Shown here: piece by piece, positions 1,978-11,130 of the stretch
How positions within the stretch are numbered: the first letter of the stretch is position 1
Layout of the letters: each line of letters opens with the position of its first letter
DNA from: a virus
Length of the DNA stretch: 11,130 nucleotides
UHGV virus genome: UHGV-0057427
Reading direction: 5' to 3' (one strand)
Program-made: the position numbers and the translations under genes
Notes under the pieces: generated by a model
Database searches by the model: none
Told to the model about the DNA's origin: nothing
Seen by the model: only the letters and a program-made list of their open reading frames with translations

Positions 1978-2652
1978 ATGAAAACAATCCATGACATCCG
2001 GCGGTCTAACGCCAGAAAACTGAGAGATGGTGTTGGCGGGAATTCTTCCTTTGCCACTATGATTGATCGCGAGCCAACCCAGACCAGCAGGTTTATGGGA
2101 GATGGTGCTACTAAAAATATCGGTGACAGCATGGCACGACACATAGAAAAATGTTTCGACCTGCCTGTCGGATGGCTCGATCAAGAACACCAGACAACGA
2201 ACATCACAAAAAAACCTGATGTTTCAATCACTAATAAACAAATCACATTAGTCCCTGTCATATCATGGGTACAGGCCGGAGCATGGAAAGAAGTTGGATA
2301 TTCTGAGGTTGATTTGAGCACAGCAGAAACGTATCCCTGCCCTGTACCCTGTGGGGAAATGACTTATATCTTGCGGGTGATAGGTGATTCAATGATTGAT
2401 GAGTACCGCCCGGGAGACATGATTTTTGTCGATCCTGAAGTACCTGCCTGCCACGGTGACGACGTTATTGCATTGATGCACGATACAGGTGAAACCACCT
2501 TCAAAAGGTTGATAGAAGATGGGACACAGCGTTATCTCAAAGCGTTAAACCCAAACTGGCCTGAGCCTTACATTAAGATCAACGGTAATTGCTCTATAAT
2601 TGGAACTGTGATTTTCTCAGGAAAACCAAGAAGATACAAAATCAAAGCTTAA
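1978..2652 (+). CDS. cI: CI-type phage repressor, N-terminal HTH plus C-terminal S24 (LexA-like) autopeptidase domain, 224 aa
   Basis: C-terminal half aligns by eye with lambda CI (TFKRLIEDGTQRYLKALNPNWPEPYIKINGNCSIIGTVI versus lambda [36 protein letters not shown]), with the GDSM serine motif and a downstream Lys. No SD precedes the ATG at 1978, consistent with a leaderless PRM-type transcript. Confidence 0.88.
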   Translation: MKTIHDIRRSNARKLRDGVGGNSSFATMIDREPTQTSRFMGDGATKNIGDSMARHIEKCFDLPVGWLDQEHQTTNITKKPDVSITNKQITLVPVISWVQAGAWKEVGYSEVDLSTAETYPCPVPCGEMTYILRVIGDSMIDEYRPGDMIFVDPEVPACHGDDVIALMHDTGETTFKRLIEDGTQRYLKALNPNWPEPYIKINGNCSIIGTVIFSGKPRRYKIKA

Positions 2653-2666
2653 TCAATGTTTATGAA

Positions 2667-2687
2667 CCTGCTTCGGCAGGTTTTTTT
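2667..2687 (+). terminator. Rho-independent terminator after the CI gene
   Basis: CCTGC-ttcg-GCAGG hairpin (2667-2680, UUCG tetraloop) followed by seven T (2681-2687), 15 nt after the cI stop at 2650-2652. Confidence 0.8.
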
Positions 2688-2691
2688 ATAC

Positions 2692-2724
2692 TTGACAATG
2701 TACCTTTGAGATACATAATGTACC
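2692..2724 (+). promoter_or_regulatory. Sigma70-type promoter (TTGACA-16-CATAAT) overlapped by GTAC-core operator-like sites, reading rightward
   Basis: TTGACA at 2692-2697, CATAAT at 2714-2719. The palindrome ATGTA...TACAT (2698-2716) and a second AATGTACC (2717-2724) share the GTAC core of the cI/cro operators. No plus-strand ORF follows; the downstream gene is on the opposite strand. Confidence 0.45.
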
Positions 2725-2802
2725 CAAGAGAAACAACAAACAGGCAGGACGCCCACGAAGTATCCGCCTGGGGCATATGAAGTCCAGGATGATTCGTTAG
2801 CA

Positions 2803-2830
2803 ACAAAAAAGCGCCCTACAGGACGCTTAG
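2803..2830 (-). terminator. Rho-independent terminator of the minus-strand zinc-ribbon gene (possibly bidirectional)
   Basis: On the minus strand: AAGCGUCC-UGUA-GGGCGCUU stem-loop (one G-U pair) followed by UUUUGUUG, about 40 nt after the TAG stop at 2867-2869. Confidence 0.65.
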
Positions 2831-2866
2831 CTCTTTAACAATCTGGATATCCACAACAGTAGTAAT

Positions 2867-3358
2867 CTACAGATTGCCGTTAAGTTTTCTGGACAACTCC
2901 TCAATGGATGGAGGCGATACGTAATCCGGATTTTTATTCATCAGAAACTTATTTTCACAGTGGAGGCACCTGCTTTTATGAAAAAGCTCATCTTCGCTAA
3001 CCGGGAATGGTTGAAGTATCGATACTATCTTTTGTCCAAAACATTTTGGGCAAAGATGCATGGTTATGCTGCCACCGTTCACGATTACCTCCTTCGAGTA
3101 TACAAAAGTACCCGACTCAAGTTGGTTAAGGATATAGCCTTCCGTCTGAGCCTCAAAGTTTTCGAATTCTGCAATTTTAGCTTTGAGAGAAGCATTTATT
3201 TCTTGATAAGAGCCCACCAGTTCAACGAGAGACACGCATTCGCGCTGAATAGACGCAAGCTTTGAGTTTAGCTCACCAATAGCCGCATTTACTTCAGCTT
3301 GAGTTTTTGCCTCGTTCATTAGTTTTGCAATCTGGGCTGTTTCACGAATAGCCGTCAT
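2867..3358 (-). CDS. Coiled-coil protein with C-terminal CxxC...CxxC zinc ribbon (163 aa), unknown function
   Basis: The track ORF 2867-3646 begins with a P/R/G-rich artefactual extension. ATG at 3358-3356 gives MTAIRETAQIAKLMNEAKTQAEVNAAIGELNSKLASIQRE... (heptad-like helical N-half) then HLCPKC-x27-CLHC. A terminator follows. SD is weak and a GTG at 3382 is an alternative start. It sits in the slot between repressor and early-left operon, on the opposite strand to both. Confidence 0.55.
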   Translation of the reverse strand: MTAIRETAQIAKLMNEAKTQAEVNAAIGELNSKLASIQRECVSLVELVGSYQEINASLKAKIAEFENFEAQTEGYILNQLESGTFVYSKEVIVNGGSITMHLCPKCFGQKIVSILQPFPVSEDELFHKSRCLHCENKFLMNKNPDYVSPPSIEELSRKLNGNL

Positions 3359-3851
3359 TGCTGCCGTTAATTCAGCGATCACATTGAATACTCTTATTGT
3401 TGTTGGGGATATCCAGATTAACCGAATCCTTGTTGTTGGGGAATAACCAGGTCCACCTCGCCTGATGTGGCTAAAAGCAGGCACATAACAGCTAAGTATT
3501 TTCAACCAGAGAGAATCCTTAGCGTTGTGGTGAATGCGGCTCAGCGCACGCGGGTTAAGGTTGAGGCTGACAGTCGACCTTCTGTGGATACCCACCCGCC
3601 CGGGGTGCAACCTTCGCCAGGCACCGGGAGGCACCCGGCACCACAACTTTATGCTGTGTGTAGTCCTGGCGGTACCAGCTTGTACCCTTGCTTCCGGCTG
3701 GTACCGTCCTTTTTACAAAACAGAGAAGAGCATCACCGGACGACGGGCTCATAACCCAATCCATCCGGGCGGCTGCCACCGCAGGTGTTCTTCTCTGTTT
3801 TGTGGAGAAACCAACCGACCTTGCAGGGTCGATATGATGAGGAGCAGCAAA
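3359..3851. promoter_or_regulatory. Long GC-rich structured noncoding region between the divergent zinc-ribbon gene and the early operon (direct repeats, terminator-like hairpin, 15-bp long-range inverted repeat)
   Basis: Direct repeats ATTGTTGTTGGGGATATCCAG (3396-3416) and CTTGTTGTTGGGGAATAACCAG (3429-3450), with a third degenerate copy near 3512-3533. Hairpin GGTACCAGC (3671-3679) / GCTGGTACC (3697-3705) followed by T5 (3710-3714). Perfect 15-bp inverted repeat ACAAAACAGAGAAGA (3715-3729) / TCTTCTCTGTTTTGT (3789-3803) enclosing 59 nt. ORFs here translate to low-complexity P/G/R-rich sequence. Confidence 0.5.
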
Positions 3852-4214: not shown

Positions 4215-4279
4215 TATCGTTCTTAATAAACTGATTATTTATCTCATCACTGAATATCTTTATATAGTGAGGACTTATT

Positions 4280-5104
4280 ATGTCTCAGAACTTAGACGCA
4301 ACCGCAATTAATCAAATCCATGCCCTTATTTCTGCTCAGGGTGTTAATGAAATTATCAGTAAGATTGGTGCCGATGCTGTGGCATTGCCTGAGAATTTCC
4401 GCATTCATGATCTGGAAAAATTTAATTTAAATCGCTTCCGTTTCCGTGGTGCGCTTTCCACTGCCAGCATCGATGACTTTACCCGTTATTCTAAAGATCT
4501 TGCAGATGAAGGCACCCGCTGCTTTATCGATGCTGATAATATGCGTGCCGTCAGTGTGCTTAACCTGGGTACTATTGATGAACCAGGTCACGCAGATAAC
4601 ACCGCCACTCTCAAACTGAAAAAGACAGCACCGTTCTCTGCCCTGTTGTCTGTTAACGGCGAGCGTAACTCCCAGAAGTCACTGGCAGAATGGATTGAAG
4701 ACTGGGCCGACTACCTTGTGGGCTTTGATGCTAATGGTGACGCCATTCAGGCAACCAAAGCGGCTGCGGCGATCCGTAAAATCACAATTGAAGCGAACCA
4801 GACCGCTGATTTTGAAGATAATGACTTCAGCGGCAAACGCTCCCTGATGGAGTCTGTCGAAGCGAAGACCAAAGACATTATGCCAGTGGCATTTGAATTT
4901 AAATGCGTTCCGTTTGAAGGTCTGAAAGAACGTCCGTTTAAATTACGCCTCAGCATTATCACTGGCGATCGTCCTGTACTGGTACTACGCATTATTCAGC
5001 TGGAAGCAGTGCAGGAGGAAATGGCTAACGAATTTCGTGATCTGCTTGTTGAGAAGTTCAAAGACAGCAAAGTAGAAACCTTTATTGGTACTTTCACCGC
5101 CTGA
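4280..5104 (+). CDS. yfdQ: YfdQ-like prophage protein (274 aa)
   Basis: ATG with GAGGA SD; length equals my recollection of K-12 CPS-53 YfdQ (274 aa) and it is followed by an HD-domain protein of YfdR size. The assignment is by size and synteny, not by alignment. Confidence 0.6.
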
Positions 5105-6345: not shown

Positions 6346-6425
6346 GATATGACTCTCAGCTGGGTTGTCTGTCAGCAACGCACTGGAATGAGTCTTTAAA
6401 CTGTACAACCGCTGGAGGGTCAGCA

Positions 6426-6659: not shown

Positions 6660-6983
6660 ACAGAACCAAATCTAATCTGAGTGTCCACTTTGTGGTGTGA
6701 GTTCAACCGATGGATGCAACACACAGGCGGAAGCTGAATGCATACTCACCTTTGTATCCCAGCGTGCTGTAACAATGAACAACAACACTCTGGTGATTTG
6801 ACGAGTGCTTAAATTCTTTCAGTAACAATGTATTGTTAGTTTACATAGTTGTAAATAAATATAGTTTATTGTAACATTTTGCTTGCAATGTCATTTAAGC
6901 AACCTGCTTACTTTGAGGGCTTTGATGATAGATGAATCCTTACTAAAATTATCATTTTTATGTATTGATTGAAGAGAAGATTA

Positions 6984-8984
6984 ATGATAGATAAATCAAT
7001 TACTAACCCTGGTTTCCATAAGCAGTTTCTATTAGAAAGGTTCAATGCTGATGAACAAAAAATATTAAAGTTATTATCAAAAGGATGGTATTTAACTAAT
7101 TCTGGCGAGGAGTTACAAATTGCTCAATCCAGATATAATTATTTTCTGATGAAACCTACACCAAAAACCTCTGAAATGTTCAACATTGAGAGAGAGATTG
7201 TTTGTGTATTTAGTAACTACGATTATTTTGAACCAAGAACATTAGATTTTTTCGAACAAGTTTACATGCGTCTTCCAAAGATGCGCACAGAGATGGTTTG
7301 TGCTGTTCTAATTGGCAGAGCTCCTGATACAGAAGAAAAGGTTGAACAGCTTCTTAAAGCTGATCCAGAGCATCAAATCATTGTACCTGTTAGTTATACT
7401 GAAATGATGTGCACAGATGCACTTCGAACACTTGAAAATAGATTTAGAAAACATTTCTACTCTCGAGATTTATTCTCCTTTTTATCTCCACTTAAAAAAG
7501 ATACATACTTTTTTGGTCGTTCAAATCTTATCAATGAGATTGTAAATCGATTCCAATCTGGGGAGCACACTAGCCTTTTTGGTCTTAGGAAAAGCGGAAA
7601 AACATCGATTGTATATGCAATCCAGAGACGTTTAGAGGCAAAAGGAGATTGTTTTGTATCATTAGATTGCGAAAGCCCATCAATACATGGCCTTCGCTGG
7701 TATGAATTACTTGAGAAACTAGTATTATTATATCTAGAGGCAAAAAAATCTAAAGTTAAAATTAACACATCTGGTAGATATGATGTTAAGAATGCTGCAG
7801 AGAGCTTTGAAACAGATATATTAAAAATTTACAACTCAAAAAAAACAGCAAGTGCTATATTTATTTTCGATGAAATTGAAAGAATTACACCGACAACGGG
7901 AGCTTCGATTCACTGGAGAGAAGAAACCGATTTTATATACTTTTGGCAGACAATGCGCGGTTTTTACCAGAAACATCCGTCTGTTTTCTGTTATATGTTA
8001 GTTGGCACAAACCCAAGTTGTATAGAAACACCATCATTATTGGGGCATGACAATCCAATTTATGCTTCAATTCAAAGCCAATATGTTCCTCCTTTTACTG
8101 TTGATCAAGTTAGTCAAATGGTTACACGTTTAGGTGATTATATGGGATTAAAATTTGACAATTTGATCACTGCAAAACTGGCAGAAGACTATGGCGGACA
8201 TCCATTTTTAATTCGCCAAGCTTGCAGCCAAATTAACAAGCTAATCCCTTCAGATAGACCTGTAACAATTGATAAATCTCTATATAATAAGTCTAAGATC
8301 GAGTTTAGGAACAACTCTCAGGAGTATTTAGCAATGATGATTCAGGTATTGTCGGAATGGTATCCTGATGAGTACGAAATGCTATGTTTACTCGCTCAAG
8401 GGGATATGGATAGTTTCAATTCATTTGCTCAGGATCATACATCTTATACTCGACATTTAATTGGCTATGGGCTTATTCAAAAAGGCACATCTGGTTATTC
8501 CTTTAACCTTGAGGAAATTTCTGATTTGCTTAGAAAAAAACATCAACATGAAAGATTAAACCTGACAGATGAAGAAAAGGTTCAAGAGATTTCAATTAGA
8601 AGAAATCGCTTAGAAAAAGGTTTGCGGATACTTGTCAGGAACACATTAAAAATATATAAGGGTTCAAATAAAGCAAAAGATGCTGTTATTTCTGCAGTTC
8701 CTGATGGGCGAAAATCAACATTACAAAATTACGATTTATCCAAACTATTAGATCCTGATTCATCTCCATTATTCTTTCTCGAATTAATTAACATAATTAC
8801 GAGAGAGTGGGTGATTTTTGATAATGTTTTTGGGATTAATAAAGAAAAAATAAAAATTATGCTTGAGGAAATTAACACTAAAGGACGTCCAGATGCACAT
8901 GCAAAATGTATTGACGAAGATGATTTTCAGCAATTAAGGCTTTACTTCAAAAAGCTTGAGTTAATACTTCAAGAGTGGTTATAA
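6984..8984 (+). CDS. P-loop NTPase with STAND/ORC-Cdc6-type AAA+ motif order, unknown N- and C-terminal domains (666 aa); candidate defense cargo
   Basis: Walker A GLRKSGKTS (nt 7581-7607) preceded by FFGRSNLINEIVNRF, Walker B IFIFDE (nt 7860-7874), sensor-1-like MLVGTN, GxP-like YGGHPFLIRQ. Codon usage is visibly AT-rich compared with neighbours. First ATG at 6984 with purine-rich SD; track start 6969 is TTG. Stands alone between xis-like and int. Confidence 0.8.
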   Translation: MIDKSITNPGFHKQFLLERFNADEQKILKLLSKGWYLTNSGEELQIAQSRYNYFLMKPTPKTSEMFNIEREIVCVFSNYDYFEPRTLDFFEQVYMRLPKMRTEMVCAVLIGRAPDTEEKVEQLLKADPEHQIIVPVSYTEMMCTDALRTLENRFRKHFYSRDLFSFLSPLKKDTYFFGRSNLINEIVNRFQSGEHTSLFGLRKSGKTSIVYAIQRRLEAKGDCFVSLDCESPSIHGLRWYELLEKLVLLYLEAKKSKVKINTSGRYDVKNAAESFETDILKIYNSKKTASAIFIFDEIERITPTTGASIHWREETDFIYFWQTMRGFYQKHPSVFCYMLVGTNPSCIETPSLLGHDNPIYASIQSQYVPPFTVDQVSQMVTRLGDYMGLKFDNLITAKLAEDYGGHPFLIRQACSQINKLIPSDRPVTIDKSLYNKSKIEFRNNSQEYLAMMIQVLSEWYPDEYEMLCLLAQGDMDSFNSFAQDHTSYTRHLIGYGLIQKGTSGYSFNLEEISDLLRKKHQHERLNLTDEEKVQEISIRRNRLEKGLRILVRNTLKIYKGSNKAKDAVISAVPDGRKSTLQNYDLSKLLDPDSSPLFFLELINIITREWVIFDNVFGINKEKIKIMLEEINTKGRPDAHAKCIDEDDFQQLRLYFKKLELILQEWL

Positions 8985-9081: not shown

Positions 9082-10356
9082 TTATCGTTCAAAGCGGGCT
9101 GTCAGATTTGATTGAGTCCTACTAAGCAAACTATCAGTTGTGTCCGCACTAGTACAAGTAATGATCGATTCAACTCTCTCCCACCATGCCTGGTAGGCTT
9201 TACGCTGTTCTTCTAGATAATCGCTCTTGTCATAAACTTGCCATACCCCTGGCAGTTTATGACCTAGCATTATTTCTGCAATATGAGGCGCAGTAAGATC
9301 AGAAAAGTTTGTTCGTGCTGTTCGCCTCAAATCATGAAGAGACCAATGAGGGAATTGATACCCCAAACGCCGCCATGCGTACTGCATTAAATTGTAAGGC
9401 AGCGACTGCAATGATGTCCGACCAACGGGTTCCCTGCTTCCTTCCTTAGTAAAAAGCATATCGGAACCATTATTCATAGAAATAGCGTACTTTATAAGCT
9501 CTTCAACCGGTTCAATAATGGGCCGCTTTAGCGGTTCGCCCGTTATCTCCCCAGTCTTATGTCGTTCTGGTGGTACAGTCCATACTTTATTAATGAAATC
9601 AAAATCGTCCACCCTGGCGGTAATTAGCTCTGAACTACGGCAGCCAAAATGCAGCAATAGTTTAATGAAGGCCCGGTATTTAGGAACCATTCGAGAACCA
9701 TCGATCGCAGCATAAAGGATTTTAATTTCATCATGTGTCAGAAACCGTTTCTTCTGACCTTTACGGATATCCATATCTTTACCCGTGATATCCGACAACG
9801 GGCGAGTTTCAATGAGCTTTCTCTTATACGCCCAGACATGGGCCTGCTTTGCGTTAATTAGCAATCGGTCTGCTATTGCTGGAGTCTTAGTGCTAAGAGG
9901 CTCCAGGACTTCTAACCAATCATGCAATGTAGCTGCATCGTGAGGGATATTCCCGATTTTAGAGAACAGGTGCAGCTCAAACGAGCGGAGTATCTGTTCA
10001 GAACCTTTTTTATTTTTTACACAATATGCTTCATACCAGGCACGGATCACAGACTCTACCGTCATGGCTTCAGTAGCTTTTCGTTTTTCAGCCTGCTTGA
10101 CCAATCGTGGATTACGGTTTGACTCGAGTTCACCACGGAGACGGGTAACTTCTTCTCTGGCCTCTTTTAATCCAGTTGCCGGGTAAGTTCCGATATCAAG
10201 ACGCTCACCTTTCCCTGCCCATTGATAACGATATTGGAACACTACGCGACCTTTCGGTGATACTCTGACAGACAGACCATCACGATCGGATTTAACCAAA
10301 ACCTTATCACGTTCCTTTCCAACGACTGAACGCAACCACGCATCAGACAGCGCCAT
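9082..10356 (-). CDS. int: Phage integrase, tyrosine recombinase (424 aa)
   Basis: N-terminal arm-binding-type region (GLSVRVSPKGRVVFQYRYQWAGKGERLDIGTYPATGLKEAREE), C-terminal catalytic signatures HDLRRTART and conserved Tyr region (LGHKLPGVWQVYDKSDY). It lies adjacent to the host junction. Confidence 0.9.
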   Translation of the reverse strand: MALSDAWLRSVVGKERDKVLVKSDRDGLSVRVSPKGRVVFQYRYQWAGKGERLDIGTYPATGLKEAREEVTRLRGELESNRNPRLVKQAEKRKATEAMTVESVIRAWYEAYCVKNKKGSEQILRSFELHLFSKIGNIPHDAATLHDWLEVLEPLSTKTPAIADRLLINAKQAHVWAYKRKLIETRPLSDITGKDMDIRKGQKKRFLTHDEIKILYAAIDGSRMVPKYRAFIKLLLHFGCRSSELITARVDDFDFINKVWTVPPERHKTGEITGEPLKRPIIEPVEELIKYAISMNNGSDMLFTKEGSREPVGRTSLQSLPYNLMQYAWRRLGYQFPHWSLHDLRRTARTNFSDLTAPHIAEIMLGHKLPGVWQVYDKSDYLEEQRKAYQAWWERVESIITCTSADTTDSLLSRTQSNLTARFER

Positions 10357-10585
10357 TACTCACCTTGTACAAATCGCAAAACACCTCTGCTGCTTTGTAC
10401 ATTATGTACAAGAATATGTACAGATTTTTGATGAAAGCAAGCTGATCGATTTAAAGTTACATGAAAGAATCTTCAATTAAAGAAGCCACATAACTAAATG
10501 TATTTAAATGAGTTATATAGCTCAACCTCAATTAACTGAAAGGATTTTGAAAGAGTAAAAGAGCTTTAATTTGGGCTTAATTATT
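10357..10585. promoter_or_regulatory. attL phage arm / integrase upstream region with clustered TGTACA motifs
   Basis: AT-rich; TTGTACAA (10365-10372), TTTGTACATTATGTACAAG (10394-10412), ATGTACAG (10416-10423) share the GTAC core of the cI/cro operators. The region ends where the prfC reading frame begins to match the host. Confidence 0.45.
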
Positions 10586-10651
10586 GGGGTGAGAAATAAT
10601 GGCAAAAGTGCGGCGCTTCGCCACCTCTTGCAAATAAGGAGACAACGTCAT
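10586..10651 (-). pseudogene. prfC: prfC 5' fragment (first 22 codons of peptide chain release factor 3) interrupted by the prophage
   Basis: Minus-strand ATG at 10651-10649 translates to [22 protein letters not shown], which matches my recollection of the E. coli RF3 N-terminus, then NN-stop where host sequence would continue DAGKTT. A 90-bp spacer separates it from the yjjG stop. Confidence 0.6.
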
Positions 10652-10741
10652 AATTCTTTCTTCTTGAGTAAGCGGCATCGCGCCGCGCTTGTTGAAAACG
10701 AAAAATTGCGGCTATTTTACCCATCAACGGGGGGGAGGCAA

Positions 10742-11130
10742 TCAGTGTTTACACAGGAGCTGCTCCAGTTCGTGCAACGAAGAAACGGTCCAGGTGGGCG
10801 CGATGCCTTCTGGTTGCTCGCGATGGTGCGCATTCAGCCAGCAGGTCGCAAGCCCGGCGTTGATGCCACCGAGAATATCGGACTCGGCAGTGTCGCCAAC
10901 CATCAGCACGCGTGAACGGTCAGGATTGCCCGCCTGTTCCAGCGCATAATCGAAAATTTTCTTATTCGGTTTGGCAACGCCAACTTCTTCGGAAATCACC
11001 AGCAAATCGAAGTAATCACGCAGGCCCGTGCGTTCCAGACGCACTTGCTGCAAGGCGCTAAAGCCGTTGGTGATGATGCCGATTTTGGCGTTGCCACGAA
11101 TGGCGTTAAGCAGAGAAACCGCGCCCGGCA
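10742..11130 (-). CDS. yjjG: Pyrimidine 5'-nucleotidase YjjG (HAD family), C-terminal part; N-terminus beyond window end
   Basis: Minus-strand translation ...[117 protein letters not shown] matches the E. coli YjjG C-terminus as I recall it; TGA stop at 10744-10742. Confidence 0.9.

Follow-up and report, generated by a model that had tools for sequence, protein, structure and literature searches.

I found that a minus-strand gene of a lambdoid prophage, lying between the cI repressor gene and the first early-left gene, probably belongs, as a divergent member, to the ring interacting pore 1 (Rip1) family and would encode, by homology in sequence and modelled fold, a single-protein, prophage-encoded abortive-infection defence. 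The Rip1 family has been characterised since February 2026 (PDB 9oox), and the gene adds a divergent relative to a kind of defence gene that is already known. What may be new is the upstream module, which this gene shares with the sieB genes of phages lambda and P22.

The window is the whole stretch of DNA that was analysed, 11,130 nucleotides of the UHGV virus genome UHGV-0057427. It covers the immunity region and the early-left end of a prophage of the SfV/SfIV/PhiR49_1 type. Its genes are those for a CII-like protein, Cro and CI, then the yfdP/Q/R-like early-left genes, an excisionase-like gene, an ORF for a 671-aa putative NTPase, the integrase gene and, at the right end, a host yjjG-like gene.

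Gene model of the rip1-like gene

Between cI and the first early-left gene, there is a single minus-strand ORF. In a preliminary description made from the letters of the window, the gene was placed at 2867-3358, a 163-aa reading from an ATG that is included in this ORF. Its stop at 2867 was retained, but the start was not: the true start is almost certainly the GTG at 3382, since the N-terminal sequence MIAELxAAM is kept in all homologues, including HK620 HkaP and JBD30 gp30. The CDS then occupies 2867..3382 on the minus strand (171 aa, with the stop codon counted in the coordinates). The ATG at 3358 becomes codon 9, and the eight added residues are MIAELTAA. In a library search, residue 1 of the shorter reading aligned to about residue 9 of its matches. 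A Shine-Dalgarno sequence, AAGAG, lies 8 nucleotides before the GTG (3391..3395, minus strand). It is kept in a 15-locus alignment, and AAGAG precedes the GTG in 16 of 17 related loci. The ATG start was rejected because the N-terminus is conserved throughout the family and the GTG in those 16 loci.

A longer ORF of 259 aa starting from TTG 3646 (annotated as 243 aa in PhiR49_1) was also rejected, as an over-extension, because its upstream part is conserved as DNA and not as protein, and because one related locus (L012) has an in-frame TGA 12 nucleotides upstream of the GTG. The public annotation is inconsistent in this respect. PhiR49_1 (L001, PV340568) carries the over-extended 243-aa CDS at 4237-4965, and the clusters in protein collections range from 171 to 186 aa.

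The preliminary description had assigned the gene to a rex/sieB-type slot, on the strand opposite to the repressor gene, with its own terminator and facing an operator-bearing promoter. All of this was borne out, and the placement is strengthened by a 32-nucleotide upstream box that the gene has in common with lambda and P22 sieB. A terminator scan placed a predicted intrinsic terminator at 2809..2828 on the minus strand (AAGCGTCCTGTAGGGCGCTT followed by TTTTGTT), and a homologous hairpin is also found 3' of the gene in the related locus L009. The gene is indeed convergent with cI: the repressor gene and its terminator occupy 1978..2683 on the plus strand (cI, with a Peptidase_S24 domain, at 1978-2652; terminator at 2664-2683). 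Facing the rip1-like gene, a PL-type early-left promoter with two operator-like 17-mers lies at 2692..2735 on the plus strand. The promoter itself (2692-2719) is near-consensus, TTGACA-16-CATAAT, with 11 of 12 matches, and the record of phage Ayreon has an annotated promoter at the equivalent position. The operator motif TGTAC-N7-GTACA overlaps it at 2699-2715 (one mismatch) and follows at 2719-2735 (two mismatches). Two perfect copies of this motif lie between cI and cro (1894 and 1944), and the window has nine matches to it against 3.2 expected. A plus-strand transcript from 2692 onwards runs antisense through the rip1-like gene and its leader.

An exchangeable cassette

The gene is a classical moron cassette. 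In pairwise blastn comparisons, window positions 2799..3452, which hold the terminator, the gene and the leader, are replaced by other DNA in SfV, a phage otherwise 95-97% identical. Ayreon differs from the window over 2750-3666. In all the genomes examined (the window, PhiR49_1, HK620, HK629, HK446, JBD30, and Rac-like and Citrobacter-type prophages), the rip1-like gene is a lone opposite-strand insert inside the lytic operon. Its exact place varies. It adjoins cI in the window, PhiR49_1 and the Citrobacter-type prophage, lies in the early-left operon of the Rac-like prophage, and lies within the PL operon in HK620, HK629 and HK446. The HK446 gene sits between N and a ral-like gene, which is the position of sieB in lambda.

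The cassette is common. At least 80% of 2799-3490 was found in 686 of 5426 complete E. coli genomes (about one in eight), and the RefSeq name of the gene is 'hypothetical protein' in all listed E. coli genomes. It is also found in E. coli phages of the PhiR49/PhiR29 type, and diverged relatives occur in Salmonella, Citrobacter and Klebsiella prophages. The Rip1 assignment gives a testable function to this common prophage gene.

Membership in the Rip1 family

The profile and structure searches that the preliminary description had called for were run, and both returned Rip1 (PDB 9oox). A profile of 60 homologues matched chain 9oox_L, 'ring interacting pore 1 (Rip1)', with an E-value of 1.5e-24 (query residues 5-152 against chain residues 15-160). 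The single sequence matched the same chain at 2.7e-7. Alignment with HK446 Rip1 by hhalign gave a probability of 99.05% and an E-value of 1.9e-18 over 146 columns. Identity to HK446 Rip1 is 25-28%. In PHROGs, the window protein falls into phrog_1244, 'unknown function' (E-values 2.4e-58 to 9e-60), and HK446 Rip1, JBD30 gp30, HK620 HkaP and the window protein all match this family end to end. Enterobacterial 'hypothetical proteins', nearly all of 150-180 aa, form one group of homologues (415 cluster representatives at 50% identity, with E-values up to 1e-3). HK620 HkaP and HK629 gp43 are 29% identical to the window protein, and the Casadabanvirus homologues of Pseudomonas (JBD30 gp30, D3112 orf25) are 30% identical.

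The fold agrees with the sequence. An AlphaFold2 model built on the family alignment (pLDDT 91.2) has N-terminal helices at residues 2-24 and 28-79, a beta domain at 84-150 with two CxxC knuckles, and a short C-terminal helix. Foldseek against the PDB found only 9oox_L and 9oox_M below an E-value of 1e-3, with a probability of 1.00, target-normalised TM-scores of 0.53 and 0.75, and 120 aligned columns. The title of this entry, released on 2026-02-04, is 'Cryo-EM structure of the Escherichia phage HK446 Rip1 in complex with the Enterobacteria phage T6 small terminase'. The window protein thus has the Rip1 architecture of about 160-170 aa with long N-terminal helices and a C-terminal beta domain bearing two CxxC knuckles. 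The helical N-half and the zinc ribbon had both been seen in the preliminary description; the spacing given there, CPKC-x27-CLHC, is in fact CPKC-x24-CLHC. The four cysteines (C111, C114, C139 and C142) are invariant in 60 homologues and are also present in HkaP and gp30. A (S/T)ILQP motif is likewise common to the family. In the N-terminal 80 residues, the mean hydrophobic moment is 0.27 against 0.20 +/- 0.04 in shuffled sequences, a marginal excess that about 5% of the shuffles reach, and the maximum moment is not above that of the shuffles. There is no transmembrane segment and no hydrophobic stretch of 10 or more residues in the window protein.

The protein itself had not been recognised in the preliminary description. 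This is fair for Pfam, NCBIfam and PADLOC, which have no model of the Rip1 family and whose scans gave nothing above curated cut-offs, but not for the literature since February 2026. Sub-threshold matches to TMF_TATA_bd, MobC, RpoP and ECs_2282 were discarded as coiled-coil or zinc-ribbon noise. SieB (PF14163) was absent from the protein in a Pfam scan up to an E-value of 10.

The closest characterised system is HK446 Rip1 (F846_gp37). The two proteins share phrog_1244, full-length profile homology, the predicted fold, a similar length (164 and 171 aa), and the order of a long N-terminal helical region followed by a beta domain with CxxC...CxxC and (S/T)ILQP. Both genes are single opposite-strand prophage morons with a 32-nucleotide box upstream. 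They differ in that the window subclade starts with GTG and carries an additional C-terminal tail that includes a short helix (residues ~150-171). The window gene lies directly between cI/PL and the first early-left genes, whereas HK446 rip1 is downstream of the N gene. The leader repeats are CCCCAACAAC in the window and CCCCTACAG in HK446. A subclade this far from the solved Rip1 is useful for mapping variation in ring recognition.

The upstream module

The common sieB-type module upstream of the rip1-like gene is about 100 nucleotides long (3383-3484, minus strand) and more conserved than the genes behind it. This was also found at loci L002, L003, L005, L007-L009, L012-L025 and L027-L148. 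Over the 110 nucleotides before the start, 15 of 16 related loci show 72-88% identity (60% in the outlier L015), whereas the CDSs of these loci are only 62-75% identical to that of the window, and the DNA further upstream is unrelated. From its sharp outer edge, the block consists of a 32-nucleotide box, two CCCCAACAAC repeats with TAATCT between them, AAGAG and the GTG. The box, TGCCTG(T)CTTTTnnCCACnTCAGGCknGGTGG (3453..3484, minus strand), is also present in SfV. It stands almost letter for letter before HK446 rip1, HK620 hkaP, lambda sieB and P22 sieB, and is followed there by two CCCCTACAG repeats.

Direct repeats had been reported at 3396-3450, and they do exist, at 3424-3441 and 3391-3408, 33 nucleotides apart according to a repeat finder. 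The first copy (TTATTCCCCAACAACAAGGATTC on the minus strand, 3424..3441) overlaps the predicted -35 region, and in plus-strand RNA it would form a 6-bp stem around a GGGG loop. The second copy (ATATCCCCAACAACAATAAGAG on the minus strand, 3391..3408) is conserved. In the P22 record, a sieB promoter is annotated with the -10 sequence TAAACT, and the RNA starts immediately before the second CCCCTACAG copy. By alignment with this promoter and RNA start, TAATCT at 3415..3420 (minus strand) would be the -10-like hexamer, and the mRNA of the rip1-like gene is predicted to start near 3408. A promoter scan found no canonical sigma-70 promoter upstream of the gene or of three homologues. No fit to the sigma-54, sigma-32 or sigma-E consensus was seen by eye upstream of the gene, and no Rfam family covers the box and leader. 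The box was rejected as an intrinsic terminator on either strand because no U-run follows it. The CA-rich repeats were considered as Hfq (ARN)n or CsrA GGA sites. This reading was dropped because their alignment partners are the sieB promoter and RNA start of P22 and, in other leader types, hairpins.

What else stands behind this box? A scan of viral contigs gave at least 120 loci, and the first ORFs behind the box belong to at least 27 unrelated families. Among the matches listed, SieB (Pfam E-value 1e-27) was found 27 times and Rip1 10 times, and the other cargo genes are without Pfam matches. Thus, the box precedes two abortive-infection genes, sieB and rip1, together with some 25 families of unknown function among the matches listed, and offers a sequence handle for new prophage defence genes. 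As the repeats are conserved before unrelated cargo genes, they would be part of a portable promoter and antisense-target module rather than a private binding site of the encoded protein.

The cargo slot of SfV (L005, NC_003444) is a separate observation. Behind the box at 3230-3253 of this locus lies an unannotated 81-aa ORF (MTFDEKELDNAINK...; ~2940-3185, minus strand); the annotated orf33 is on the other strand. The family of this ORF, with 14 loci among the matches listed, ranks second in frequency among the cargo. The deposited annotation of the slot is probably on the wrong strand.

Two types of leader, short and long, were found behind the box. The short type has an extended -10 sequence, TGGTATnCT, inside the box and then one hairpin, whose stem shows compensatory changes (UUCUUGG/CCAAGAA, UACUGG/CCAGUA, UGCUGG/CCAGCA, UCCUUUUA/UAAAAGGA and UCCUCU/GGAGGA). 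The long type, to which the window and sieB belong, looks like a duplication of the short-type unit. In 30 unique leaders of the window's type, 97% pairing on the plus (PL) strand and 68% on the mRNA strand was counted for the six pairs around the first CCCC, a difference due to G-U pairs. As most of those pairs never vary, this is suggestive but not decisive of pairing that favours the antisense strand in this leader type.

An antisense RNA is known from P22. The 105-nt cis-antisense RNA sas switches off SieB synthesis during the phage's own growth. The conserved block, of about 102 nucleotides, is near this reported size, and the PL-type promoter at 2692 reads through it in the antisense direction; a sas feature is not annotated in three P22 records. 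I tentatively propose a generalisation of P22 sieB/sas, which I consider possible but somewhat short of probable. The leader of about 100 nucleotides, with its near-invariant box and one or two hairpins or repeats, would be a portable expression and self-immunity module. It would supply a promoter active in the prophage and an mRNA 5' end targeted by a structured antisense RNA, made when the carrier's own PL fires, so that the defence is off only in the carrier's lytic growth. The box would be a cargo-exchange hotspot in enterobacterial lambdoid prophages, and the approximately 25 uncharacterised small-protein families among the matches listed would be antiphage genes. Such a module suggests how prophages avoid triggering their own defences.

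Proposed mechanism and alternative explanations

For homologues, antiphage activity, the ring triggers, the 12:11 complex and pore formation have been established by others, and are taken here from secondary sources. In the account that a review (PMC13434031) gives of Patel et al. (2026, Nature 651:1060), the gene for Rip1 belongs to a P. aeruginosa prophage, where it is flanked by the terminase genes. According to the same account, Rip1 alone is harmless to cells, and escape mutations fall in the portal gene for phages of Pseudomonas and in the gene of the small terminase for those of E. coli. By cryo-EM, an 11-mer ring of small terminase is surrounded by 12 Rip1 subunits, whose C-terminal half touches the ring and whose N-terminal part is an amphipathic helix. 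The review further describes dye release from liposomes, holes in cells and premature lysis of infected cells, and calls Rip1 homologues widespread in proteobacterial prophages (PMC13434031). What is said of Rip1 in a conference report and in a 2026 terminase-sensing paper (PMC13601566) agrees with this account.

By analogy, during repression of the lytic genes, the prophage would express the 171-aa protein from a promoter belonging to the gene itself, and the protein alone would be harmless. When a superinfecting phage reaches late expression, its portal or small-terminase protein would assemble into a ring. The C-terminal beta/zinc-ribbon half would bind around this ring and gather about 12 of the long N-terminal helices, which would insert into the inner membrane as a pore. 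The cell would die or lyse before progeny are complete, and sister lysogens would be protected. On induction of the prophage, antisense transcription from PL (2692 onwards, plus strand) may keep the protein from being made, in the way that sas acts on P22 sieB. Since identity to the characterised HK446 Rip1 is so low, trigger specificity, stoichiometry and even activity are extrapolated in this scheme. The earlier suggestion of an exclusion or abortive-infection factor is supported by the homology and the fold match to Rip1.

Instead of forming a late-acting pore, the protein may exclude superinfecting phages early, for instance by keeping the incoming genome out of the cell. JBD30 gp30, of 164 aa, is listed as a phage-resistance moron, and the JBD30 structure paper with its Appendix Table S1 has an entry that gp30 'blocks phage genome injection', credited to Tsao et al. 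(2018), which is a different mechanism. HK620 HkaP carries the label 'putative superinfection exclusion protein', but this label rests on position only, and a literature search for 'hkaP' gave only unrelated matches. The lack of a transmembrane or hydrophobic segment in the window protein also speaks against early exclusion, as does the later structural and genetic work on the Rip1 family, which, as far as the secondary accounts go, points to late-protein triggers and a pore. I consider early exclusion unlikely.

It is more doubtful still that the gene has its role in the carrier phage's own cycle, for example by acting on that phage's terminase or portal or on when lysis occurs, with any defence phenotype being secondary. 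The binding of terminase and portal rings that the review describes for the Rip1 family (PMC13434031) would suit such a role. However, the gene is always on the strand opposite to the lytic operon and is followed by a terminator of its own; of near-identical phages, some have it and others lack it, and the slot holds SieB or other cargo in relatives. In lambdoid phages, moreover, the packaging genes are distant from its early-left location.

A zinc-ribbon DNA-binding regulator or an antirepressor-type protein, acting on the direct repeats at 3391-3441 upstream of its own gene, as the preliminary description had also offered, is very improbable: a zinc ribbon with a coiled coil fits nucleic-acid binding in general and the repeats do exist, but Pfam, NCBIfam and PHROGs show no DNA-binding, HTH, regulator or Ant/KilAC-type domain in the window protein, its sole structural relative is Rip1 bound to a protein ring, and identical repeats with the box precede unrelated cargo genes, as analogous repeats precede sieB, so that they are not specific to this protein.

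The proposed late-acting Rip1-type defence can be set beside other prophage systems. The Casadabanvirus morons (JBD30 gp30, D3112 orf25 and the DMS3 homologue) are alike in sequence, at ~30% identity over ~88% of the length, and in lying on the opposite strand inside the lytic operon, but a sieB-type box and repeats are missing upstream of them. The sieB system of lambda and P22 (PF14163; Esc and the antisense RNA sas belong to it) shares with the window gene the opposite-strand position inside the PL operon, the upstream box, a two-repeat architecture of the leader and the promoter (predicted in the window), and, by homology for the window protein, probably an abortive-infection type of outcome. 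The proteins have no relationship in sequence or fold. SieB is a membrane protein with hydrophobic segments, whereas the window protein has none, and no Esc-like internal product is evident in the window gene. Tab (tail assembly blocker) of JBD26 is likewise a prophage moron on the minus strand; it has its own promoter and lies in the terminase-flanked slot that Rip1 homologues use in sister phages. It is set apart by its description, as a protein of 83 residues unrelated to known proteins that targets the tape-measure protein and has an anti-Tab partner gene. RexAB of lambda is a repressor-linked abortive-infection system, expressed in the lysogen, that depolarises the membrane. Its two genes are unrelated in sequence and are co-transcribed with cI on the same strand, whereas the window has a single convergent gene.

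Other features of the window

Directly after the box in the PL direction, there is a GC-rich non-coding stretch (3494-3717, plus strand) that matches Rfam STnc100 (RF02076). The score in the window is 35 bits, below the 47-bit threshold, and two related loci score 49 bits (L028, 3043-3265) and 43 bits (L027, 3445-3667) at an equal relative position. It looks like a conserved RNA element heading the early-left transcript of this phage type.

At 375-438, there are 4.3 tandem copies of a 15-nucleotide unit, CAGATTTTGACGGGT. They resemble iterons and may be the sign of a replication origin; in the window's first 500 bases, all the listed ORFs are short and overlap. A weak Rfam match to 'mir-5880' there was regarded as spurious.

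At the other end, positions 9082-11053 hold the integrase gene (424 aa; Arm-DNA-bind_3 and Phage_integrase domains) and then a fragment of a host yjjG-like HAD hydrolase gene (10742-11053, minus strand). ARAGORN found no tRNA gene in the window, which excludes an intact tRNA gene within it as the attachment site.

Between the excisionase-like gene and the integrase gene lies the 671-aa ORF (6969-8984, plus strand), with weak matches to STAND/AAA NTPases (nSTAND1, E-value 1.7e-5; PADLOC PDC-S01, E-value 1e-4). Its GC content is 32-36%, compared with 42-53% elsewhere in the window. PhiR49_1, whose homology to the window ends at 6389, does not have it. This ORF is a candidate for a second, horizontally acquired defence gene.
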